DNA of 64,000 nucleotides from Bacteroidia bacterium (GTDB taxonomy: Bacteria > Bacteroidota > Bacteroidia > M30B66), in assembly GCA_965279035.1 (NCBI GenBank), contig OZ257142.1:1888001-1952000 (forward strand), in the 5' to 3' direction. Positions within the stretch are counted from its first letter, which is position 1. Each line of letters begins with the position of its first letter. Of this stretch, positions 5,642-18,535 are shown piece by piece. A program made the translations under genes and the position numbers. Below the pieces are notes generated by a model, which worked only from the letters and a program-made list of their open reading frames with translations, was not told where the DNA came from and made no database searches.

Positions 5642-7768
5642 TTAATGTTTTACAATCAACTTTTTATAAGTACGATCTTTTCCAGAACCAACACGAACAA
5701 GGTAAACTCCCGATGCAAAATTGCTTGTATTGATTTGCAATTGTGTTGAGTTTTGAGGAATAAGTTGATTTAGAATTTGACGACCATTTATATCAAACAC
5801 ATGAATTTGGGAATTTGTAAGTGAGCTTGATAATGAAACTTGAACAAATTCATTTGCTGGATTGGGAAAAAGATTGAATTCAAAAGCAGAAACCGTTTTG
5901 ATTCCAGATGTTGCATTGGAAGCTCCCGGTGTAGTAAAACCGTCTTCGAAAACAGTTAATTCACCATCTACTTCGCTATCATATCCATACGATTGATTTG
6001 GACCTAATTGTTCATAGGTTAAAGAATCAATCAAATCTCCATTTCCAGCATACAATCCAACATATTCTCCTGCTGGAGATAAGGTGAAATTCGTATGCAG
6101 TGGACCTTGAGCAATCGTATTATCAGCCCAAACCAATTTGAAACCACCAGCATTTATTACTGTACTTGCTGATCCTGTAGGAAACTGATATTTATTGGTT
6201 ACAGTTATATCATCAGTAATAAACAATCCTGCTAAATCGGCTGGTGTAGAAGCAGCGTTATAAATCTCAATCCAGTCATCAAATTCGCCATTCTCATCGG
6301 CTATTGTGCCTGTATTGGAAGCCATCACTTCGTTGATGTATAAATCACTTACAACAGGTGCAGCATCATTATCTAATACTGTAATGGTTTGAGTTGCATT
6401 TAAACCAGCTTGAAGATTACTGCTAAAGGATGTCAAACTCAAATTCAAACTCTCTGGAGATTCAATGTCTGTATCATCATTCACATGAAATGTAAAACTA
6501 TAGGTAGTAATTCCGGAAGCCAATGAAACAGCAATGACTCCTGATGCTGCAGCCGGATTTGTAGTATAGTCAGCTGCACTTATTCCATTTTCTGTTAATT
6601 GAATGGAGAATGTCTGTGAACTTGAAATAGCTGGTAAAATTTCCAATTGAACAGTAATGTCTGATTGTCCTTCGGTTATTGTTTGTGTAGTTGAAGTAAA
6701 ACTCACGAAAGAAACTCCGGCAGGTTCAGTGATTTCGAAATTCAAAGTATTACCCGATCCGATAGTAATTCCTGCTGTTGAAGATGAAATCGTTAAGGTT
6801 CCAGATTCGGTTCCTTCGCTTAATCCATCTGCAATAGCAGCTAAGTTTAATGAAATAAAAGTGGAGCCGTTCGGAATTGGAATCGTAACCGAATTAGCAC
6901 TAAATGCTGGTGTAGACTGTAAATCAGCAGAACCTACAATTCCGCTTAAAGTAAGTGTAACGGTTTGTGAACCAAAACTCGCAGGGCTAATGCTAAACGT
7001 TACATTTTGTGAGGATCCTCCTTCGGAGAGACTTAAAAATCCACTTTGGAAATTAATTTCAGAAGGTGCTGGAGTGTCGAATGTAAATGTCCATGCAGGC
7101 CACATTTCAAAACCACTTAGTGTTGGATCATTATCATATTGCCAATTTTCTGGATCCATAATAACCGCTAAAATGTCGGCAACAGGTCCGCTTAGGTCGG
7201 GAGGAAAAAGGTATCCATTATCAGTACCAGTTGAATCTCCAGTGATGGCTAATGCATTGATTCCTTCTTCTAATGGTGCAGGTAAGCAAGTGAAATTAGT
7301 ATTTCCAACACCTGTTGTATTACAAACAGGAAGAAAAATATTGACACTGATAGCAGCCACAAAACTCGGACTTGCACTCGATCCTGTATAAGCTAAAATC
7401 TGATCACCACCAGTAGCCAAACCATTCAATTCGCCAGTTGCAGTTCCCGGACCGGTTACTAGTTCAATATTATGTCCTGCACCAGGAATGGTATCTTCCC
7501 GAAAAATAATGGTAGTACCGATTGGAACACCTCCTACTGGTGCAGTCCAAACAACTGTTTGCTCATTTGTAAATAAAGCAGTTCCACTCCAGCCATTATC
7601 AGTAAAACTGATAGTTGTTCCAGCTGCAATGTCTTGCAAAGTCACAATGGCAAATCCATCAGGGGCATCACATTGCATTGATAGAAATGCAATTCCCCCA
7701 GGTTGAACTTGTGAAAATGCCGTTAATGAAAAGAGGCAAATAATGAAAGAAGATAAAATTGATCTCAT
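5642..7768 (-). CDS. T9SS type-A secreted protein: N-domain, 2 Calx-beta-like domains, LTD (paralog 2)
   Basis: Start moved to MRSILSS (7768) because a -7 box lies at 7784-7791. Motifs PDGFAIVTL..ISFTDNGW; LYINEVMASN...DDWIEIYN; CTD LFPNPANE...KKLIVKH. Confidence 0.8.
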   Translation of the reverse strand: MRSILSSFIICLFSLTAFSQVQPGGIAFLSMQCDAPDGFAIVTLQDIAAGTTISFTDNGWSGTALFTNEQTVVWTAPVGGVPIGTTIIFREDTIPGAGHNIELVTGPGTATGELNGLATGGDQILAYTGSSASPSFVAAISVNIFLPVCNTTGVGNTNFTCLPAPLEEGINALAITGDSTGTDNGYLFPPDLSGPVADILAVIMDPENWQYDNDPTLSGFEMWPAWTFTFDTPAPSEINFQSGFLSLSEGGSSQNVTFSISPASFGSQTVTLTLSGIVGSADLQSTPAFSANSVTIPIPNGSTFISLNLAAIADGLSEGTESGTLTISSSTAGITIGSGNTLNFEITEPAGVSFVSFTSTTQTITEGQSDITVQLEILPAISSSQTFSIQLTENGISAADYTTNPAAASGVIAVSLASGITTYSFTFHVNDDTDIESPESLNLSLTSFSSNLQAGLNATQTITVLDNDAAPVVSDLYINEVMASNTGTIADENGEFDDWIEIYNAASTPADLAGLFITDDITVTNKYQFPTGSASTVINAGGFKLVWADNTIAQGPLHTNFTLSPAGEYVGLYAGNGDLIDSLTYEQLGPNQSYGYDSEVDGELTVFEDGFTTPGASNATSGIKTVSAFEFNLFPNPANEFVQVSLSSSLTNSQIHVFDINGRQILNQLIPQNSTQLQINTSNFASGVYLVRVGSGKDRTYKKLIVKH

Positions 7769-7783
7769 GAATTGAAATTTGTA

Positions 7784-7791
7784 CAAATGTA
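7784..7791 (-). promoter_or_regulatory. Bacteroidota -7 box
   Basis: TACATTTG on minus. Confidence 0.55.
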
Positions 7792-7824: not shown

Positions 7825-9756
7825 TTAGTCGAAAAACACCCAGTTGAAACCGATTTTTAATAAGCGGTCGGGGAGAGGATAATACGGTATAACATTGGCT
7901 TGCATGCCAGCAATTCCGGCATTCACATGTTCCATCATGGCAAATATTCTTGCCCTGCGGATTTTAACACTCACATAAAAATTCGCTTGAATGAGTCCTT
8001 TATTTAGTTTATCATATTGAAGATAAAATAATCCACTTTGAGGCTGATATGCATTCGCTCTGAACAAAGAGCATCCGATTACATCTATTCCTATTCTCCA
8101 TGGAGTTGATTTGCCAATTCGTCCTTCTCTAAAAACACTTTCTTGATATTGGAATTCAGGCAATCGAATCACATTAGTTCCTGAAACTTTTTGATATAAA
8201 ATGCGGCTATATAAGTGCCACTTACGAAGATGAATTTGATTTTCTACTTGAGCAGAAAGCACATTGATTGCAGATGAGAATTGCGCTGGAGCTGCATTTT
8301 GACTCATGTACACCCAGTTTCCAATAAGCTGGTTGCTAACTTTTATTTCGGTATGAAGTTTTGGCAGTTGGATGGTACCATACACTTTGAGCAGATTGAT
8401 TTTCTTAAATGAATTGCTCCAAGTTCCAAAATTCGAAATGAATCGTTGAAGCTGGTAAACAGGTTCTTGACGATAACTTTCAATTCCAGCTTGAATAACA
8501 AAGGTTGATTTCGGTTTCAATAAAATGTTCCCAGCTAGTTGAAGATCACCACTGTTATATCCAGAATAGAAAAGTTCTGTTTCAGCATGAATTTTCAATT
8601 GTGGTCGAAACGTATAATCGAGTTTCCCTCCCAAACTTTGATTTAGTACATGCAGGTTATAGGACTGACCTTGAATGGAATCATTCATCCACACATGTGC
8701 ACTTTGTTGTTTCAAGAAAGCTTTTGCTTCCCAATGCATTTGATGAGCAGTATCCGAAACATTACTCAGTTTAAGTAAAGCAGCTTCACTTTCCCATTGA
8801 CTATTGTAATAATCAAGAAATTTTCTTCCCGAATCTGCAATGCTTGTGTAATAGGTATTTACCGGATTTTCATCATCGTATGAATGCCTGTTGAAATTAT
8901 ATTGAAGCGTATGTTGAATTCTTAGTGAAGCTCCTTTCTTTTCTACTTTATTTGAATCTACATTCGGTCGAAAGAGATCATAGGTTTGTCGCAATAGAAA
9001 ACCATTTCGAAAGACTTTGTTTCGAGCTTTTAACAGATTGATTGGATAAAGCTGTCGGTTATTTACTGTATTCGTTTGGAAAGTAGAATCACCTTCGGCA
9101 GTTATTCCTCCATTTTCGAAAGAAGCTCCTTTGTGATAAACAATGCCTGCAAATGCTTGATATCTTCCTTTTCCTGGACGATACCACGCATGAAATCGCA
9201 AAGCAGAATGAGCTGCTGTTTGTCTCAGATACGTTCCCGCTGAATTTACCCGTTGAAAATCAAGTCCGAAATTGAGGGCTTTTCCAACATTTTGTGTGTG
9301 TCGAATTTTGAAAAATGCTTCCTGCTTTCCTCCTTGCGTATAAGATGCTTCGGTATAAGGCGATTGTGCATCATAAAAACGCATGTCTTTCAAATCGAAA
9401 ACATAAGGCAGAAAAGTTCCAAATCCCCAATTAAATCCTCCATTAAAACGAGGCTGAAAATTCAAATCCTGAATGGCAGTTCCATTATTTCCAAGGGTTG
9501 AATTGATGAATTGGTTTCGATAAACTGGCAAGTAAAACTGGAAACGATCGAGTGAATACGTAATCCGTTGCAACCTGTTTTGTCCCGACTCAGAAATCTC
9601 CAGGCCGCCCATTTCTACACGTGAAGTATCTCGACTAACGCCCGAAGAATCAAAACCCGATTTCATTGATCCATTGCCGGTATTGTTAGTCCCGAATTGA
9701 GCATGGACACACACAGTGCTAAAAAGAAAAATGAAGATGGTCAGCCGTTGAATCAT
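7825..9756 (-). CDS. Bacteroidota putative porin (Porin_10-like beta-barrel)
   Basis: Start MIQRL (9756) gives a signal peptide ending VHAQ. Motifs LGNNG, P.TEASYTQG, HTQNV...NFG...S.G.Y.RQ; C-terminus KIGFNWVFFD. Confidence 0.8.
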   Translation of the reverse strand: MIQRLTIFIFLFSTVCVHAQFGTNNTGNGSMKSGFDSSGVSRDTSRVEMGGLEISESGQNRLQRITYSLDRFQFYLPVYRNQFINSTLGNNGTAIQDLNFQPRFNGGFNWGFGTFLPYVFDLKDMRFYDAQSPYTEASYTQGGKQEAFFKIRHTQNVGKALNFGLDFQRVNSAGTYLRQTAAHSALRFHAWYRPGKGRYQAFAGIVYHKGASFENGGITAEGDSTFQTNTVNNRQLYPINLLKARNKVFRNGFLLRQTYDLFRPNVDSNKVEKKGASLRIQHTLQYNFNRHSYDDENPVNTYYTSIADSGRKFLDYYNSQWESEAALLKLSNVSDTAHQMHWEAKAFLKQQSAHVWMNDSIQGQSYNLHVLNQSLGGKLDYTFRPQLKIHAETELFYSGYNSGDLQLAGNILLKPKSTFVIQAGIESYRQEPVYQLQRFISNFGTWSNSFKKINLLKVYGTIQLPKLHTEIKVSNQLIGNWVYMSQNAAPAQFSSAINVLSAQVENQIHLRKWHLYSRILYQKVSGTNVIRLPEFQYQESVFREGRIGKSTPWRIGIDVIGCSLFRANAYQPQSGLFYLQYDKLNKGLIQANFYVSVKIRRARIFAMMEHVNAGIAGMQANVIPYYPLPDRLLKIGFNWVFFD

Positions 9757-9761
9757 CGCCG

Positions 9762-9769
9762 CAAAAGTA
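9762..9769 (-). promoter_or_regulatory. Bacteroidota -7 box of the porin gene
   Basis: TACTTTTG on minus, 5 nt before ATG 9756. Confidence 0.6.
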
Positions 9770-9835: not shown

Positions 9836-9863
9836 AAAAAAAATCCCGCCGACGGGCAGGATT
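9836..9863 (-). terminator. Rho-independent terminator ending the small intergenic transcript
   Basis: Minus: AATCCTGCC-cgtc-GGCGGGATT running into a T8 tract. Confidence 0.75.
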
Positions 9864-9895
9864 AAAACCGTGTTGGTCTGTCGACCGGTTTTGCA

Positions 9896-9943
9896 TTACA
9901 GACCGGAGCAAAGGATGTGCGCCGAAGTTCTATAATCAGACAT
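9896..9943 (-). CDS. Putative 15-aa small ORF MSDYRTSAHILCSGL
   Basis: AAAGGAGGT-GTGC-ATG with canonical SD spacing; TAA at 9898-9896. Translation is unproven. Confidence 0.35.
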   Translation of the reverse strand: MSDYRTSAHILCSGL

Positions 9944-10012
9944 GCACACCTCCTTTCGATTCGTTAGTATAGTAGAATGACAAATTAAATGAAAGATTGT
10001 TTGGTGATGGAT

Positions 10013-10066: not shown

Positions 10067-13000
10067 TTAGTGAGCAACTACCACACGAATAGTTCTTGTG
10101 GTTTTGTTATCACGAATTACTGCTAGGTATGTTCCTGCTTTCAAGTCGGAAGTGCTGATTGTTTCTACCGAATTTGTAAGCGTTTTTCTAAGAACCACTT
10201 TGCCAGTGATGTCGGTTAATTCTAACACCGCTTGACGTGAATCAGAACGAAGAATTTTTACCAATTCGTTGGCTGGATTCGGGAAGGCGATGAGTTGATT
10301 TCCGTCCGTTACATTAGCAATTCCTGTTACATCATCTGTAATAGCAATTTCGTAGCTCGAAGTAGAAGTACAACCACCATTGCTGATCGAAAGCGTTACG
10401 GTGTAGATACCTGTTTGCATGTAAGCGTGCGATACATTTGCACCAGCTACCAGGCTTGTTTGATCACCGAAATTCCACGTGTATTCAGCACCAGCAATTT
10501 GAACTGTGCTAAATTCTACGATGGCTTTATCAAGGGAGATGCTCGAAGCAGAACTTGTGATACCGGCATTTTCGAAAGCTTCAAATCCTTGAATATCGAT
10601 CAAAGTAGAGTTGAATTCAGTTCCATCATACGATGTTTCCATTGAGTACGATTGTGGAGCCAAGCCAGTGAAGATGTATTCTGCCATCACTGAATCTTTC
10701 GCCATGACTACTTCGCCTGCGGTGTTTTTGATACGAGCTTGCATTGGGTAGTTCTGGTTAGGATTGCTTAGAATCACTTTTCCTGTGTTTTCGTTAGTAC
10801 AAGAACCAGTTGAAGAATAAGCGAATGGAGCCATGAAATGCAGACGGAAACGTGTTCCAACAAATGCAGGATCGTTGGTAAATGAATAGTTCGAAGAAGC
10901 ATTCATGTTGTGGAATTCACCTGTTTTACGGTCTTCCAAGAACACACGAACTGTTGGATCGAAGTTATCAAATAGGTTGAGGTCGAACGAATAGGTTCCG
11001 GCAGTAGCCATCACCACACCTAAATCAATTACACGAGCAGTGTTAAGAACTGGTAAATACTGAGTAGTAAATTGATCATCACCAAGCATAGTGTATAATT
11101 CAAGTACTTCACTTGAAGGCATTCTTGGAGAATCGAATCCGAAATCAACGCCATCTGTTCCTGTTTCACCAAAACCAACAACGGCATCAAAACTAATTTG
11201 ATTTGGATTGGTTAAACGTAAACGTAGGATTGAATATGGACTATCGTTATCGAGGAACTGAGTTGAGTTACCCGGATAATTTGGAACACGTTGATTGGAG
11301 TTGAAACTAATAGATCCAGCACCGCTTACTTGAGCTAAGAAACCTTGACCAGCACCAATTTCTGCTGAGTTAAATCCTGCAACGATATTACCACTAAGAA
11401 CTCCTAATCCTGACATAACAACATACGAGCTGGAGTTATATGGAATATTTCCTGAGAATGACCATAAGTAAACAGAACCAAGGTTCGCGTTTGTAGCTTT
11501 TAATGAACTGTATGATAATGCAGATGGATAAGGATTTCCAAGCAAGTTAAAGGTGTTTGAACCATTCACTGTAACAGGAATATTTACTGTTCCTTCATTC
11601 GAAGTACCAACAAATTTTACGTTTCCGTTACCTGCATACGTTTGAATATATCCTCTTCCTGGAGTCATTACAGTAGGACTAGTGATTGCAGAACCCCAAG
11701 CTAATTGTGGATTTGTTCCGCTACCAGCAATTTGATTATCATACTGATACACGTTATTTCCGTAATTAGAAGCTAAAACAGAAGTTGTTGCAGCTGTAAC
11801 AGGAGAGCTCCAGTAATTGTATCCACCGTAAAGAGATCCACTACGATTGTAGTTGATATTTCCAGTAACAGTACCACTGTAGTTTTTAGTTAAATCGGCT
11901 GTTGCAACACCGCCGCTAAGTAGTACGGAGTTGTTTTCGAAACTCATATTACCATTACTAGCTACCGATACACCAGCTCTAACAGCTACAACACCGTAGA
12001 AACGAGTGAGTGACAAAACAGCACCAGTATTCAAACCACCTTCGTTAAAGCGAAGTGTACCAGTTCCTAAGAATCGTGGAGCAGTAGTTTGCAAATACGC
12101 ATAGAAACCAGAACGATTGATATAGCTTTTGTATGTAGCACTTGCAGTCAATCTCAATTCAGCACCAGCGTTAATGGTAATGCTTGGAATGTTGTTATTT
12201 CCAATAGAATTGATGAATTCAACTCCGTGAACGTTTTGAGTTCCATTAATCACTGGGTAAACATTGCTAACCAAGGTTGGAATAATAACAGTTGAATTAA
12301 CTGATGGAGTTGTTAATGCCGAAACATCACCGCCTGACCAGTTTGCCGCATTTGTAAAGTTATTATCTGCCGCACCTGTCCAATAAAGACCGTTCGTAAC
12401 AGCCATTTTGATAAACTGAGCAGGAGCTGCATTTCCAGCAGTAGTTCTTGCCAAACGGATATATACAGTAGAACCTGGAGTTAAGCCAGTTGCAGCAGCG
12501 TAAGCCATGTTAGCAGCAGCACCGCCAGAGTTACAAGCAACTTGAGAAAGTCCTGTTGAACATGTAGTAGCAGTGAAAATTTGAACCAATGCACTCGTGA
12601 TGTTTAACGATACAGTTGGATCATTATGTTCTTGAGTAATGACGTGAACCTCACCATTGGCAGGAACTACAGCACGGAACCAAATATCTTTATTAATTCC
12701 AACACAAGCAGCACCTGGACTAGCCGTAGCACCTGTTAAAGAACGAAGAATGTAGTTTGGAGTGCTTGTTACATTAATTAAACCTGCAGGAAGATTTGCC
12801 AAACAGATATCATTCGTAATGGCCGGGTCAACGGTAACTAAAATTGCAGTTGGACTTGTATTACAAGCAATTAAGGTATTGGTTGCTGTTACATTGTATG
12901 TCACCGTAGAGAATGGTGCTGCATACACTGTTAAGATTGGAGTTCCTAAAACATATGGAATTGTAAGAGCAGCATCTGTATATAAATCTGATGCAGGACT

Positions 13001-16000
13001 CCAAGTATAATTTGTATTAGCAAGTGGAGCAGTAACTTCCAACATTCTTGATGGATTTGAAGCATCAATGGTAGTTGAAGTAACATTCGTTACTGGTAAA
13101 GCGGCAGAGGCTGCTACCAAGTTATTGAATGAATTTACAGCTGTTGCTGATACAGCATTTAATGCAGTATTTACGGAAGTACTTAAAGAAATCCAAGGTG
13201 AGCTACCATTGTATAAAGCAAGACCAGCTTCAGGTAAGCTGTTCAATTCGCTAGTCAAGTAGTAATAATTGACAGTTGCATTCAATCCAGTATTAACTGT
13301 TGGAGTAATTGTGAACTTACGTAAAACACTCGAAGAAGAACATCCGATGTCTTGGCTATTTCCAGTATTACGGAGAACAACTGTAGAACCTGGTTGAGCA
13401 CCAGCAGCAGTAATTTCAAGACCCATTCCACCAAATTGTTGAAGGGCATTTGTTAGAACACGTGTTGTTTCAACGTTTCCAAGAACATTGTTGGCATCAG
13501 TTTCTGAAATTGTTGCTGTTGCACTCAAGATGACTTTGTTTGCACCTGTTGTAATTCCACCTAATGAACAATCTAAATTTCCTGTACCAGAAATCTTCAT
13601 ATTACCCGAAGTCAACGTAACACCATTGGAATTGCTGATTGTTACATTGTTGAATGATTCACCTGCAGCGTATGAAGTACTGAATGATTGTGCTCCAGAT
13701 GTTCCATTGAATTCGAAGGTCGAAGTTCCGGAAGCAATCATATCAATTGTGCGCGAATCTGTAAAGTCGCCAGCTATTTTGATTGTATTGCCATTCGGAG
13801 TGAATTTTCCAGTAGAAGTCCCAGCAATTGTAAAGTCACCTTTGATGATTACATTGGCACTTCCACTTGAAGGTTGAACCTGAGTTACAGTTGTTCCACT
13901 AGTTTGAATGCTTAGGTTATTGATAGACGCTTTGATAACAGAAGCTGATCCACCTGAACCATCCTGACGAATATTCGCTGTACCAGTAGCTCCATTTAAA
14001 ATGATAGAACCAGTAAAAGAATAGCTCGCAGTATTTCCAGCACACTCTAAATCTCCACCTATAGTGATTGTGTTTGCATTATCGGCAAATGAAGATGCTC
14101 CAGCATTGGTGTTCAATTTAATATCATCGCTCAATACCAAGTTTGTTGTTGCAGCTAATGATAATGAACCCGTTTTTAAATCGCTACCAGAAGAAATTAA
14201 TGTACCGCTAGTATTGGCAACGTTCATCAACAAACGTCCTGCATTGATTGCATTTCCATTTCCAACCAATTGCTGTGTATTAGAGCCATATGCTTGAAGA
14301 TTCACATACGTATTGTAATTGGTAGAGTAGGTAATGGTTCCGTTTACAGTGATGTCTTTTTTGAAGAATACAACACTGAAAGTTGTAGAAGCATTTACAC
14401 TTGCATTGGTAAATGTGTAATCACCTTCAACGCGATATCCACCAATAATACGTTTAACACCAGCACCAGTAAAGGTTAAGTTACCGTATTGATTGTTTGT
14501 AGATGTTGGAACGGCGATGTCTTGATTGGATAATGAACCGTATACAACCGTAGTGTTTGGCTCAATACCATTCAATGTTGGAACAGTGGCATTGTTTAAG
14601 TTCAATGTTGCTGTACCTTCCAAGCTATCAACTACTCCAACAAAAGAGAATGCATCAGGAATAGTTACAGTACAATTAGTACGGATTAACACTTTTGAAT
14701 TTGATCCTGAAACAGTCCAGTTTGCACCAAGAGTTGCTGTAGTTAAACGGTGTTGAACGATGAACGTTTGGTTTGATGCAGTGAAAGAAGTTGGGTTTGC
14801 ACCAGTTCCATCATTATTAGTCCACCATGAACCTAATTGGTCTAAGTTTCCAGTTGAATCAGAATAAAAAATAGATGGTGTGAAGTTGATTGGAGTAAAA
14901 GTAACATCATCAACTCCTAAACCATCACGAGTTCCAAATGTACCAGTATTATTATGTGTCCAACGAACCCAAGTAGAAGCTCCATTCGCAACAGATGCAG
15001 GTAAAAATACTGTATCCATAATAGCTTGACGATAAGCACCAGCATTTCCATTACGAGGATTATCTGTGGATGTTGTTCCGTAATCAGGTGAGTAAAAATT
15101 TAGAATACTTGAAGATCCCCAAGTTCCAGTTGCTAAGCTTGTTGCTGTAGAACTGTATTCGAATTTCAACTTATCACGTGCAGGAGCACCGCCATTCGAT
15201 GCATTTCCTGTAACACCTCTTCTCCATTGTTCTCCGTTGTAATTCACAATAAGAGCGTTAAAAGTTGTTCCAGTAGAATTTGTGATTTTGAAACCTACTT
15301 TTACATCAGCCAAACCACTAGTAATGGATGAACCTAAGGCACGATCAGATGTTGCTCCAGTTCCAAAACTGTAAGTGTCTCCAGTCGATAAATTACCATC
15401 ACCAGCAGTTAAAATCAAGTTTTGGTTGGTTCCTGTTTCAAGGTAATAAGCACCTGTACTTACTTCGGTACTTGTTCCAGAGACAATTATGTTATTGAAA
15501 TCAGTTGTAGCACTTGGAGTACCAATGACTGTTACAATTACAGCATCATCATTATCAGTGATGGTTACGTTTTGAGTGATTGTAGTTCCAAGATATAAAC
15601 CTGCCGAAGGATTGGAAATGTTGATTGTTGCAGTTTCGGTTCCCTCATTCAAGTTGTCATTTACCACTGTAAATGTGCTTGTTCCAGTTGTTGCTCCAGA
15701 AAGAATTTTAATCTGAATTCCAGCTAAAGTACCATCTCCATCAACCAAGGTATAATCACCTGAAGAAATGGAAGTACCTGTTACCGTTAAATCAACCGTT
15801 TCGTTGCTTGTTAAAGTAGAATTTGAAGTTGCAGTAACTGTTATGGCTGTTGTTCCAACTTCTGTTCCTGCACTTGCACTAACACTTACGTTAACAGTTG
15901 GAAGCAAAGCTCCATTTAAGATTACATATTGAGTGTATCCGGATGTTGTTGTAAGAGTAATGAGTTTGTTATTGTATGAACCAGCAGCAAGATTTGCTTT

Positions 16001-18535
16001 CAAACGAACATACACCGTTGTAAGAGCAACTGAACCTGCTGTTGGATTTAAGTTCAATGAATTGACAAACGTTCCACCTGAAGTTAGGCTAATTTCATAA
16101 TTAGCATCAACATTCAATGCAATTGGATTAACACCTAAGTTAGAACCACTCACTGTGAATGATTGCTCAACCGATGGACCAGTACCAGGACCAGAACCAG
16201 CATAGGTAAATCCATTTAAAATGGTAGATCCAATATTAATTTTTGGAGCGCTTGCTGAAATTGGTGCTAAGGAAATTCCTTTAACTGTGTTTGTTCCAGT
16301 TGCAGTGTATAAAGTAACGTTTGAAGGTGTGTTAACGTTAATAGTTGTATTATAACCGGCTAAGTCAGTTACTTTTATAATACTGTTTGCTGCAGTAGCA
16401 CCACCTCCTGTTGAGAAGAATATTTCAGCTCCAATTCCTAATCGCAAAGCTGTAATTCCAAAACCACCACCAGCTGCTGTATATGATCCATTCGCAGTCC
16501 AAAGACCCGCAACTAATGAATATTTTAATATTCCAGTTGCAGTTACAAAATACATCACATCGTATGTAGTTCCATTCACTCCGGATTGAATCATATAGAA
16601 ATCTATAGGAGTAATACCAGAGGAAGCGAATCCATTTAATGTTGTTGCTGTAATATCTGTTGGAGTAGCAAAACTTACAACTGTATTGGTTGCAGAATTG
16701 GCCATTGAATATACCGTCCCTCCAAAAGCTTTCGCACATCGTTTATTCGCAGCAAAGGTTGGTGTTGTAGCACCTCCATTTGAGAATAATCCTATTTGAT
16801 CAATAATATAATATGCAGAGTTATCAATAGAAGTAGCTCCACGTGTTTGGTTACCTGTTGTACCAGCGTATGTAGCTGGAAGGTTAAATACAAAATTAGA
16901 AGTCAAGGTACCTACACCACGAGGTAAAATAGTATTGATATTACCTGCTGAAGTAGTTGTATTGTGTCCAACAAAACTCAATAATGTACCATCGTTTGTA
17001 GTCGCTAAATAACCCGCCGATGTAGCACTTCCTGTAAAACGTAAAGAATTAGCACCTGAAGTTCCATTGATACTGTATGTATTAATGGCTGATTGAGCAG
17101 CAGTAGTTCTATTAATTTCAACAATAGAAGCAGTTGTATTAGAACTAGTATTATCTGCTATTTGGAATAATGCCAAATTGCTCAATGTGAAATTGATTGC
17201 GGCTGTAACTGTCCCACTTGCAGTAATCGATGAACTTGCTCCACCACCAGCAATACCAATTGTTTGACTAGAATATGTTGCTTGAGCCATTCCTGCTTTC
17301 AAACGCACATAAAAAGGAGTTGAAGCAAGAGTAGCTGATGAATAAGGTATCAAAGCAGTAGCTCCAAAGGTGATATTATCACTTGAAACTTCGAAAGCAG
17401 CTGAGCCTGTTATTGTAATATTGTTAGGCGCACCAGTTAAACTAGCACCAGTTAGATTAAGTGTTTGTGAAGTTGAAGGTCCAGACCCCAATGGATATGT
17501 AAAGCCTGTTAATGAACCAACACTCGGTGTTAAGGTAGGTGATGCAGAAGTAACGGTTCCAGTTGTTGAAACGTTTATTGTTGTTGCTCCACCACCAGCG
17601 AGTGTTACTCCTGTTACTGGTCCATAAGTAGCTGCAGCAAGTCCAGCTTTTAAACGAACATACGTTGTTGTTGATGCTAATGCTCCACCTGAATAAGCAA
17701 CAGTATATGAATTACCACCAGCAGCAGTAATTCCGTCTGAAGAAACTTCGAAATTGGTTGTTCCAGCCACTGTAATGTTTCCAGCTGCAGGACTTAAACT
17801 TGATCCAGTAAATGTATATGACTGCCATGCAGATGGACCAGCTCCTGTATAATTAAGTCCGGTAATAGCAGCAGGTTGAGATATTGTTGGACCTGTTCCA
17901 GTAAGTTTAACATCATCTATACGAATAGCTAATGTTCCAGTTTTTACAAATCGAATTTTTAATCCATTGATTTGAGCACCTGCAGGTAAGGTTAAGGATT
18001 TAGAAAGATACCATCCAACAGTAGCACCTGCAGCTTCATTAAATAAAGCTCCAGAAGTATTGGCAACAACTTGCCATGCAGCACCATCCCAATAATCGAC
18101 AGAAAAAGTTGCATGTGATGCAGCATTTTCTTTACGATAACCAAATTGTAATGTCAAACCAGTATAAATAGAAGCATTGATAGATTCTATCGAAAAACCA
18201 TAAGCACCAGAAGTGGTTGTTTCAAAAATATTTCCTCCACCGGATGCTCCTGTATAACCAGAAGAAACATTTGTTACACGGAGATCTGCTGGATTAGTTT
18301 GAGCTCCGTTAGAATAGGTGAGGTTAGCTCCAGCTCCATTGTTTTGGAAAGTTGCAGGAGCAGTACCGCCAACATAAGCAACAATAGTTGTTGTACCGGC
18401 TGGGGTTCCCATATTCTCCGTGAATATGGTTGTTTGACCGAATCCAAGATTGACTGAAATGATGATCAGCAAGGCTGCCAAAATTCCGCTTGGAAAGTGA
18501 AAAATTCGGGATCGTTTCGTAAGAGTTGATTCCAT
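10067..18535 (-). CDS. Giant (2822 aa) multidomain T9SS type-A surface protein/adhesin
   Basis: Signal peptide GFGQ; three ~110-aa YVRLKA Ig-like repeats; propeller-like region; Calx-beta; SDRALGS/GEQWR domain; beta-helix-like region; YNYWSSPV and NLLGNPYPS modules; PKD (YTWNFGD); CTD AFPNPANE. Confidence 0.85.
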   Translation of the reverse strand: MESTLTKRSRIFHFPSGILAALLIIISVNLGFGQTTIFTENMGTPAGTTTIVAYVGGTAPATFQNNGAGANLTYSNGAQTNPADLRVTNVSSGYTGASGGGNIFETTTSGAYGFSIESINASIYTGLTLQFGYRKENAASHATFSVDYWDGAAWQVVANTSGALFNEAAGATVGWYLSKSLTLPAGAQINGLKIRFVKTGTLAIRIDDVKLTGTGPTISQPAAITGLNYTGAGPSAWQSYTFTGSSLSPAAGNITVAGTTNFEVSSDGITAAGGNSYTVAYSGGALASTTTYVRLKAGLAAATYGPVTGVTLAGGGATTINVSTTGTVTSASPTLTPSVGSLTGFTYPLGSGPSTSQTLNLTGASLTGAPNNITITGSAAFEVSSDNITFGATALIPYSSATLASTPFYVRLKAGMAQATYSSQTIGIAGGGASSSITASGTVTAAINFTLSNLALFQIADNTSSNTTASIVEINRTTAAQSAINTYSINGTSGANSLRFTGSATSAGYLATTNDGTLLSFVGHNTTTSAGNINTILPRGVGTLTSNFVFNLPATYAGTTGNQTRGATSIDNSAYYIIDQIGLFSNGGATTPTFAANKRCAKAFGGTVYSMANSATNTVVSFATPTDITATTLNGFASSGITPIDFYMIQSGVNGTTYDVMYFVTATGILKYSLVAGLWTANGSYTAAGGGFGITALRLGIGAEIFFSTGGGATAANSIIKVTDLAGYNTTINVNTPSNVTLYTATGTNTVKGISLAPISASAPKINIGSTILNGFTYAGSGPGTGPSVEQSFTVSGSNLGVNPIALNVDANYEISLTSGGTFVNSLNLNPTAGSVALTTVYVRLKANLAAGSYNNKLITLTTTSGYTQYVILNGALLPTVNVSVSASAGTEVGTTAITVTATSNSTLTSNETVDLTVTGTSISSGDYTLVDGDGTLAGIQIKILSGATTGTSTFTVVNDNLNEGTETATINISNPSAGLYLGTTITQNVTITDNDDAVIVTVIGTPSATTDFNNIIVSGTSTEVSTGAYYLETGTNQNLILTAGDGNLSTGDTYSFGTGATSDRALGSSITSGLADVKVGFKITNSTGTTFNALIVNYNGEQWRRGVTGNASNGGAPARDKLKFEYSSTATSLATGTWGSSSILNFYSPDYGTTSTDNPRNGNAGAYRQAIMDTVFLPASVANGASTWVRWTHNNTGTFGTRDGLGVDDVTFTPINFTPSIFYSDSTGNLDQLGSWWTNNDGTGANPTSFTASNQTFIVQHRLTTATLGANWTVSGSNSKVLIRTNCTVTIPDAFSFVGVVDSLEGTATLNLNNATVPTLNGIEPNTTVVYGSLSNQDIAVPTSTNNQYGNLTFTGAGVKRIIGGYRVEGDYTFTNASVNASTTFSVVFFKKDITVNGTITYSTNYNTYVNLQAYGSNTQQLVGNGNAINAGRLLMNVANTSGTLISSGSDLKTGSLSLAATTNLVLSDDIKLNTNAGASSFADNANTITIGGDLECAGNTASYSFTGSIILNGATGTANIRQDGSGGSASVIKASINNLSIQTSGTTVTQVQPSSGSANVIIKGDFTIAGTSTGKFTPNGNTIKIAGDFTDSRTIDMIASGTSTFEFNGTSGAQSFSTSYAAGESFNNVTISNSNGVTLTSGNMKISGTGNLDCSLGGITTGANKVILSATATISETDANNVLGNVETTRVLTNALQQFGGMGLEITAAGAQPGSTVVLRNTGNSQDIGCSSSSVLRKFTITPTVNTGLNATVNYYYLTSELNSLPEAGLALYNGSSPWISLSTSVNTALNAVSATAVNSFNNLVAASAALPVTNVTSTTIDASNPSRMLEVTAPLANTNYTWSPASDLYTDAALTIPYVLGTPILTVYAAPFSTVTYNVTATNTLIACNTSPTAILVTVDPAITNDICLANLPAGLINVTSTPNYILRSLTGATASPGAACVGINKDIWFRAVVPANGEVHVITQEHNDPTVSLNITSALVQIFTATTCSTGLSQVACNSGGAAANMAYAAATGLTPGSTVYIRLARTTAGNAAPAQFIKMAVTNGLYWTGAADNNFTNAANWSGGDVSALTTPSVNSTVIIPTLVSNVYPVINGTQNVHGVEFINSIGNNNIPSITINAGAELRLTASATYKSYINRSGFYAYLQTTAPRFLGTGTLRFNEGGLNTGAVLSLTRFYGVVAVRAGVSVASNGNMSFENNSVLLSGGVATADLTKNYSGTVTGNINYNRSGSLYGGYNYWSSPVTAATTSVLASNYGNNVYQYDNQIAGSGTNPQLAWGSAITSPTVMTPGRGYIQTYAGNGNVKFVGTSNEGTVNIPVTVNGSNTFNLLGNPYPSALSYSSLKATNANLGSVYLWSFSGNIPYNSSSYVVMSGLGVLSGNIVAGFNSAEIGAGQGFLAQVSGAGSISFNSNQRVPNYPGNSTQFLDNDSPYSILRLRLTNPNQISFDAVVGFGETGTDGVDFGFDSPRMPSSEVLELYTMLGDDQFTTQYLPVLNTARVIDLGVVMATAGTYSFDLNLFDNFDPTVRVFLEDRKTGEFHNMNASSNYSFTNDPAFVGTRFRLHFMAPFAYSSTGSCTNENTGKVILSNPNQNYPMQARIKNTAGEVVMAKDSVMAEYIFTGLAPQSYSMETSYDGTEFNSTLIDIQGFEAFENAGITSSASSISLDKAIVEFSTVQIAGAEYTWNFGDQTSLVAGANVSHAYMQTGIYTVTLSISNGGCTSTSSYEIAITDDVTGIANVTDGNQLIAFPNPANELVKILRSDSRQAVLELTDITGKVVLRKTLTNSVETISTSDLKAGTYLAVIRDNKTTRTIRVVVAH

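Follow-up and report, generated by a model that had tools for sequence, protein, structure and literature searches.

Does a short stretch between two genes of a Bacteroidia genome encode an RNA built to meet the 3' end of 16S rRNA, in a lineage poor in Shine-Dalgarno (SD) sequences, and if so, what could such an RNA be for? The sections of the published work drawn on here describe ribosomes of the Bacteroidia that bury their anti-SD (ASD) under the proteins bS21, bS18 and bS6 (PMC9976891, PMC13000453, PMC13000457, PMC7797042, PMC9723584). According to the same sections, rpsU of F. johnsoniae and of many of its relatives carries an SD of 9-13 bp, which is used solely by ribosomes lacking or releasing bS21, the 13-bp rpsU helix clashing with that protein (PMC9976891, PMC13000453, PMC13000457). 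When 200 Flavobacteriales were screened, a genome had as a rule one SD gene, and the authors of the screen consider SD control in that group to be limited to rpsU; as the relevant section describes it, the screen ran gene by gene, so that an unannotated frame of 15 codons could escape it (PMC9976891).

The locus considered here lies in a window of 64,000 nt, by which we mean the whole stretch of DNA that was analysed. An earlier note on this DNA, made from the sequence alone, had placed a promoter box, an extended SD, a short frame, two stems and a terminator on the minus strand, and every one of its coordinates for these features was found in the sequence as given.

Layout and surroundings of the element

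The features on which the argument draws are the following, all on the minus strand.

9981-9988, minus: weakly indicated candidate -7 promoter box, TTAATTTG, from the sequence
9966, minus: TAAC, start of the compact unit 9966-9836
9930-9966, minus: near-invariant 5' block of 37 nt, TAACNAANNGAAAGGAGGTGTGCATGTCTRATTATAG, from alignments A1 and A3
9946-9957, minus: extended SD of 12 nt, GAAAGGAGGTGT, complement of the 16S 3' tail
9896-9943, minus: ATG (9943-9941), 15 sense codons (MSDYRTSAHILCSGL) and stop (9898-9896), from the sequence
9910-9922, minus: internal anti-SD, GCGCACATCCTTT, forming the 5' strand and loop of P2 and able to pair with the SD
9895-9936, minus: hairpin P1/P2 of the SD-free fold (P1, 9936-9929 with 9902-9895; P2, 9925-9918 with 9910-9903; loop CATCCTT, 9917-9911)
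9864-9892, minus: hairpin P3 (AAAACC GGTC ... GACC ... GGTTTT), from predicted folds
9836-9863, minus: intrinsic terminator (stem 9863-9842, T8 run 9843-9836)

Between the GGAGG core and the ATG lie 5 nt, TGTGC, which end in the GC dinucleotide at 9945-9944 (minus). The Bacteroidetes -7 consensus is TAnnTTTG, and the box at 9988-9981 departs from it at one position, which agrees with its earlier description as near-consensus. Relatives of the element carry T[TC]AA[AG]TTG at this place, a perfect TAnnTTTG box (TATTTTTG) is present in the related genome G015 only and at a different distance, and the distance from box to TAAC varies among the copies. The bin 10000-9961, which holds the box of the window, is only 69% identical to the related genome G006. 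The candidate promoter, poorly conserved as it is, forms the weakest part of the case.

Upstream of the element, a gene for a 2822-aa PKD/T9SS protein ends at 10067 (minus) and has its own terminator (10050-10018), whereas downstream follows a Porin_10 gene (7825-9756, minus) with a perfect -7-type box, TACTTTTG, five nt before its ATG (window 9754-9769, minus). This box is kept 5-6 nt before the porin ATG in all the relatives seen (L001 3988-4004, L002 1262-1278, L011, L012 and L023), a position that suggests a leaderless or nearly leaderless porin mRNA. Porin and element are flanked by surface proteins sorted by the T9SS, namely the upstream protein already mentioned (10067-18535, minus; PKD and Por_Secre_tail) and a 714-aa ORF (5642-7786, minus; LTD and Por_Secre_tail), the product of which is likely to be shorter and to start at a downstream ATG. 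On L023, a contig with a copy of the element, a DDE transposase gene (6760-7656, minus; DDE_Tnp_1_3) lies directly upstream in place of the T9SS protein gene.

Complementarity to the 16S tail, conservation and distribution

The 16S genes of two carriers of the element, G010 and G015, end in ACACCTCCTTTCT, or ...GGAACACCTCCTTT followed by CT when written in the pairing register, and this tail, which does not differ between the two carriers whose 16S is known, complements the element perfectly over 12-13 nt: 12 consecutive nucleotides pair with either tail, and G010 extends this to 13 by an A in front of GAAAGG. The 16S ending given in the earlier note is thus the actual one in two carriers of the same order, which are relatives of the window and not its own genome. 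To judge by the T1 oligo quoted in PMC13000453, F. johnsoniae has a tail of identical sequence. With these tails, the duplex of SD and 16S amounts to -21.4 kcal/mol over its 12 consecutive pairs (ViennaRNA), compared with only -2.5 to -2.7 kcal/mol for the initiation regions of rpsU within this order. For the SD duplexes of rpsU, the part of the literature used here gives -14 to -21 kcal/mol, computed with a different program (PMC9976891).

Such a site is exceptional in its surroundings. The exact 12-mer GAAAGGAGGTGT occurs a single time in the window, the chance expectation for a 12-mer with at most one mismatch being 0.19 per window. When the 19 nt before each ATG (-22 to -4) were compared with the complement of the 16S tail for 2402 ATG triplets on both strands, at least 9 nt of tail complement were found before this ATG alone, even though the span of the census shortens the element's own match from 12 to 11 nt; the runner-up ATGs have 8. 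The 46 long ORFs of the window show 6 nt at most and no GGAGG core in any match, and the earlier statement that no comparable SD precedes the other genes of the window therefore holds, with an SD before none of the 46. In five genomes of the same order, the core 11-mer AAAGGAGGTGT has 12 exact matches, four of which belong to the element, two to the 16S gene read backwards and six to the inside of open frames; reversed-pattern controls gave similar background counts.

A separate match was seen in G088, which belongs to another order: an exact 19-nt copy of AGAAAGGAGGTGTGCATGTC-like sequence (L018, G088:C56:11048-11066, minus; E 0.006) that is followed by a frame of just 7 codons, with no hairpins similar to those of the element, and is probably there by chance.

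When compared with G006, the element stands out as an island. Identity is 95-98% per 40-nt bin from 9960 to 9841, as against 50-72% in the flanking gene ends and spacers and 68% for the adjacent porin at the protein level. The order T9SS protein, element, porin is kept on both sides in G006 and G004, and this two-sided synteny argues for purifying selection on the island in these genomes rather than for recent transfer. The copy on L023 adjoins a porin that is 55% identical to that of the window. Within the element, the 37-nt block, with which the conserved island begins and which takes in the SD, the AUG and 14 nt at the beginning of the frame, is invariant at 33 of its 37 positions in seven aligned sequences of five types (L021, close to G006, was left out), an apparent invariance that is inflated by the fact that the searches required part of this block. 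As judged from these alignments, the part of the element that has changed least perfectly complements the 16S tail of relatives, and the element as a whole is very probably a functional RNA.

Homologues are few. A DNA search over 150 relatives of one porin-matched genome returned nine genomes at E <= 0.01, and four of them hold real matches: G006 (93% over 152 nt), G004 (91%), G015 (79% over 131 nt) and G010 (92% over 37 nt). The remaining matches span 19-34 nt and mostly concern the terminator end of the query. The element is present in 4 of the 24 species genomes that make up both the order and the family of G006, in a single copy in each. A covariance model, R1, scored the four carriers at 105-164 bits and everything else at 26 bits or less; seven of these low-scoring matches were looked at, and each consisted of a gene's 3' end together with a terminator. 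Allowing as many as 3 mismatches, a 24-mer search of 401 genomes sampled across the phylum came out empty, and model R2, built on the 5' block and P1/P2, recovered G006 and G010 only among 150 genomes sampled from the class. The scan of one metagenome added three contigs, namely L021, which is near G006, and L022 and L023, which represent new types, so that the homologue set consists of eight sequences of five types. A contig search based on the porin yielded just two loci, L001 and L002, the porins of which are 65% identical and both of which are without the element. Rfam 15 gave no match in the window at gathering thresholds and nothing beyond noise at E up to 10, the top sub-threshold match being anti-hemB with 19.6 bits against a threshold of 49.5. 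The distribution, in a small order of uncultured freshwater Bacteroidia, is thus narrow and patchy, and a wider spread might be expected of an important ribosome-control device. The literature searched contains nothing on a small ORF or sRNA with an extended SD outside rpsU in the Bacteroidia.

Since rpsU is the gene to which such SDs are ascribed, its state in the order is of particular relevance. Genes for bS21 were identified in 19 of the 24 genomes, and none of the 19 primary copies has an SD, the tail complement being 5 nt at most and the GGAGG core absent. Among 29 rpsU genes scanned across the class, two have at least 8 nt of tail complement: that of G032 (L091), from another order, has a perfect 12-nt extended SD, AGAAAGGAGGTG, and is the only such case in the 29, and that of G038 has 8 nt without a GGAGG core. 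As G032 was recovered as a positive control, the scan is able to detect extended SDs, and beyond the groups that the literature names there is nothing unusual about an rpsU lacking an SD. The bS21 of G010 has 9i5v and 7jil as its best PDB matches, with 62 of 64 residues of 9i5v matching in the alignment and the KAIY motif kept. Its sequence is that of the Bacteroidia type, and from this similarity of bS21 we infer that the ASD may be sequestered in the order as well.

Two further rpsU regions deserve mention in their own right. In G035 (L112), the sequence upstream of rpsU reads GAAAGGGGGTGA, which may be a variant SD or point to a variant ASD. G012 has, besides a primary rpsU without an SD, a second, divergent bS21 gene (MLIIDSKDCENI...; L075, G012:C104:2658-2816, minus) on a short contig; this gene is preceded by AAAGGAGGT and may be phage-derived or a contaminant.

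The element itself precedes no bS21 gene, its frame encoding MSDYRTSAHILCSGL and rpsU lying elsewhere, which leaves it outside an autoregulatory loop of the rpsU kind. By sequence, its 12 consecutive pairs with the 16S tails of relatives are those that define an extended SD of the rpsU type; although it answers to this definition, it is not filed under the rpsU-type family because it is not attached to rpsU.

Folding of the element RNA and access to its SD

The idea that the SD is hidden came from a pairing of 12 out of 13 positions within the element, and this pairing is borne out: GCGCACATCCTTT faces AAAGGAGGTGTGC with one G-U pair and one G-A mismatch. The minimum-energy fold of the element RNA (-43.3 kcal/mol, z = -2.0; RNAfold) contains the corresponding helix between SD and anti-SD. 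When the SD is forced to be single-stranded, every sequence of the set folds into a hairpin beginning 8 nt inside the frame. In this hairpin, P1 pairs AUUAUAG(A) with (U)CURUAAU, and P2 has a sequence of its own per type, for instance UCGGCGCA:UGCUCCGG in the window, ACUGCGCA:UGCGUAGU in G015, GGGCGC:GCGCCC in L023 and GAGUUGC:GCAGCUC in G010. In alignment A2, 89.7% of the cells of P1/P2 are paired, compared with 28-51% when the partners are slid, and in four pairs both partners have changed, a number that 6 of 500 shuffles attain; these covariation statistics are thin, with 8 sequences of 5 types only. In the MAFFT alignment, P2 of G010 lies one column out of register and is scored as broken. 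P3 is variable or expanded in the other types (inner stem GGUC:GACC, GGCC:GGUC or GCACAC:GUGUGC), and the terminator is common to all homologues, with a conserved ATCC...GGAT base.

Which of the two folds has been kept in evolution can be judged from the sites that vary among the window, G006 and G004. All seven are unpaired in the model made of P1/P2, P3 and the terminator, in which 58 of 126 positions are unpaired, whereas just four of the seven are unpaired in the minimum-energy model with the helix between SD and anti-SD. For this reason, the SD-free fold is the one that evolution has kept. The covariation and the variable sites together thus turn against the hidden-SD hairpin of the earlier note as the conserved fold.

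This does not make the internal anti-SD an accident. The best duplex of the 14-nt SD block with the downstream RNA was compared with that in 1000 dinucleotide shuffles, and in the window it reaches -16.6 kcal/mol, a value attained by 0.9% of the 1000 shuffles. The fractions of shuffles at or below the native value are as follows.

window: 0.009
L022: 0.041
G015: 0.081
L023: 0.099
G010: 0.022

G010 has the partner of its SD in another place, downstream of P3 at ...GCGCCUUCU. A homologous GCGCACA segment is common to four of the five types, and the five values are therefore not independent of each other. As regards the masking of the SD, then, one part of the claim survives, since the internal anti-SD beats the shuffles in each type, but the other does not, because the accessibility of GGAGG is no different from that in shuffles: with the downstream sequence shuffled, the fraction at or below native is 0.41-0.70 in six sequences and 0.08 in G010. 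Taken together, the predictions suggest that the internal anti-SD is probably under selection and competes with P2, which would give two alternative states; for the window RNA, the predicted energies of the two states differ by about 7 kcal/mol at 37 C and by 12 kcal/mol at 4 C. That the anti-SD gates the SD is not established by these models, in which accessibility is no lower than in shuffled sequences.

Possible functions and known systems

The reading that we prefer, and to which we assign a probability of about 0.5, is that the element RNA is bound as a ligand by ribosomes whose 16S tail is exposed. The element would be a small RNA gene in its own right, about 125-140 nt long and amounting to a mini-mRNA, the core of which would be a ribosome-docking module from -23 to +14. 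This module would consist of the 12-13-nt SD, the 5-nt spacer, the AUG and the frame's initial 14 nt, and would roughly coincide with the stretch contacted by a bound 30S, if our footprint comparison is right. 30S or 70S particles with an exposed tail, either bS21-free or immature, would specifically bind to the element RNA and initiate on it, and the anti-SD could mask the SD in alternation with P1/P2, so that access would be gated. The output would be ribosome capture or translation itself, the RNA acting as a sensor of, or a sink for, ribosomes with a free tail, and an N-terminal nonapeptide may be part of it as well. Capture or translation is the likelier output than a folded protein because the peptide is not conserved beyond about nine residues. 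Transcription, ribosome binding, dependence on bS21 and a downstream effect are all steps that we infer.

A more far-reaching version would make of the RNA a regulated ribosome decoy or quality-control probe. Once unmasked, the 12-13-bp helix would capture 30S or 70S with a free tail and park them on the start codon in front of the hairpin; if the rpsU complex is a guide, it may even displace bS21 from replete ribosomes, and would in this manner set the pool of bS21-free ribosomes or flag immature 30S. We regard this version as tentative and, on balance, rather unlikely; if it were true, it would represent a second, trans-acting use of the idle anti-SD of the Bacteroidia where rpsU escapes SD control.

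The short frame invites a simpler explanation, according to which the element is an ordinary small-protein gene, its product being a peptide of 15-29 aa with an MSDY[RS]xx[AC]H N-terminus and the long SD merely securing translation. The frame is open from the same conserved AUG in all eight homologues and stands at a canonical distance from the SD, and residues 1-5 and His9 are common to all five types, even to G010 with its otherwise different P2. However, the remainder of the peptide is not conserved and the length of the frame varies (15, 15, 21, 17 or 29 codons in the five types), so that the conservation of the ORF, a point on which the earlier note had asked for evidence, extends to the start of the peptide and to the openness of the frame but neither beyond residue 9 nor to its length. 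Moreover, L022 keeps the RNA sequence while being frameshifted with respect to the window after codon 11, and the three substitutions in the frame between the window and G006 are all nonsynonymous (D3N, T6I and S13T). Synonymous changes are absent from codons 1-5 in all five types, from which a constraint at the nucleotide level follows, although part of this is ascertainment, the block having been required by the searches; finally, the frame sits within the covarying hairpin. With this evidence, a peptide as the purpose of the element seems unlikely.

We consider it just as unlikely that the element is a trans-acting sRNA, with a G-rich, single-stranded 5' seed that pairs with C/U-rich sites in mRNAs and a resemblance to an SD and an AUG that are both incidental. 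The layout would suit an sRNA, given the conserved single-stranded 5' part, the hairpins and the intrinsic terminator, and so would the genomic context, which is independent in three of the five types. Nevertheless, coincidence would have to account for a block that exactly complements the 16S tail over 12-13 nt and is then followed by an AUG at SD spacing, and in G015 the 11-mer recurs in the 16S gene only. Significant pairing with rpsU mRNA was not found either, as the element RNA paired with its carrier's own rpsU mRNA no better than shuffles did (0.53 and 1.0).

A third possibility is that the element acts in cis as a leader peptide or attenuator that controls the downstream Porin_10 gene through read-through of the terminator. 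Short ORF, alternative hairpins and terminator are all present, and in two of the five types, one represented by the window, G006, G004 and L021 and the other by L023, a same-strand Porin_10 gene lies 80-130 nt downstream. In the other three types, by contrast, a convergent gene comes next, namely bioD in G010, pgi in G015 and a methionine aminotransferase gene in L022, neighbours without a common functional theme, the upstream genes being mutually unrelated as well. In addition, the porins of L001 and L002, which are without the element, keep their own TACTTTTG box 5-6 nt before the ATG, and the position of the stop relative to the hairpins varies. The convergent genes and the porin's own box in loci without the element lead us to regard the element as stand-alone and not as a conserved porin leader, in line with what the earlier note had proposed on this point, and make attenuation of the porin a very improbable function. 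Least credible of all, to the point of being negligible, is a type I toxin-like mRNA, as had been suggested at first, or some other remnant of a selfish or mobile kind: the short ORF, the maskable SD, the patchy distribution and the transposase next to the L023 copy would fit, but the peptide is short, polar and neither hydrophobic nor membrane-like, its length (15-29 aa) and frame are not conserved, the element is single-copy and has no match in viral contigs, and the synteny of type A is conserved on both sides.

If the element is the ribosome ligand that we propose, its significance would lie in several directions. It is a natural, conserved extended SD off rpsU, in an order with an SD-less rpsU. 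Should ribosomes bind to it, those with an exposed tail, be they bS21-free or immature, would have a second dedicated ligand, and there would be a further reason why Bacteroidia without SDs almost universally conserve the anti-SD.

Among known systems, the closest relative is the extended SD of rpsU in F. johnsoniae and other Bacteroidia, which, as described in the sections drawn on here, likewise has a perfect complement of 12-13 nt to the tail in a lineage poor in SDs (PMC9976891, PMC13000453, PMC13000457). The spacing from core to AUG is 5 nt in the element, compared with about 10 nt in rpsU as deduced from the G-11/G-15 numbering in the portion of the report used (PMC13000453). The two also resemble each other in the range of duplex energies, in being the sole such site in the genomes checked and in the AUG that follows. 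They differ in that the element heads a non-conserved frame of 15-29 codons on what is predicted to be its own terminated transcript, instead of rpsU, and in that it possesses, in addition, an anti-SD of its own and, from +8 onwards, a conserved hairpin.

In STAB-SD and similar 5' ribosome-binding stabilisers of the Bacillota, an SD near the 5' end protects a long downstream mRNA. The element would share with them the location of the SD near the 5' end and a role that consists in binding ribosomes and not in producing protein; in contrast, its terminator follows about 110 nt further on, and three of its five types are without a co-directional downstream gene.

The leader-peptide attenuators, such as the erm and cat leaders, make use of alternative hairpins that involve SD and anti-SD. 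A short ORF behind a strong SD, helices that exclude each other and a terminator are common to these leaders and to the element, which differs from them in that it has no conserved regulated gene downstream and in that the end of its ORF is not fixed relative to the helices.
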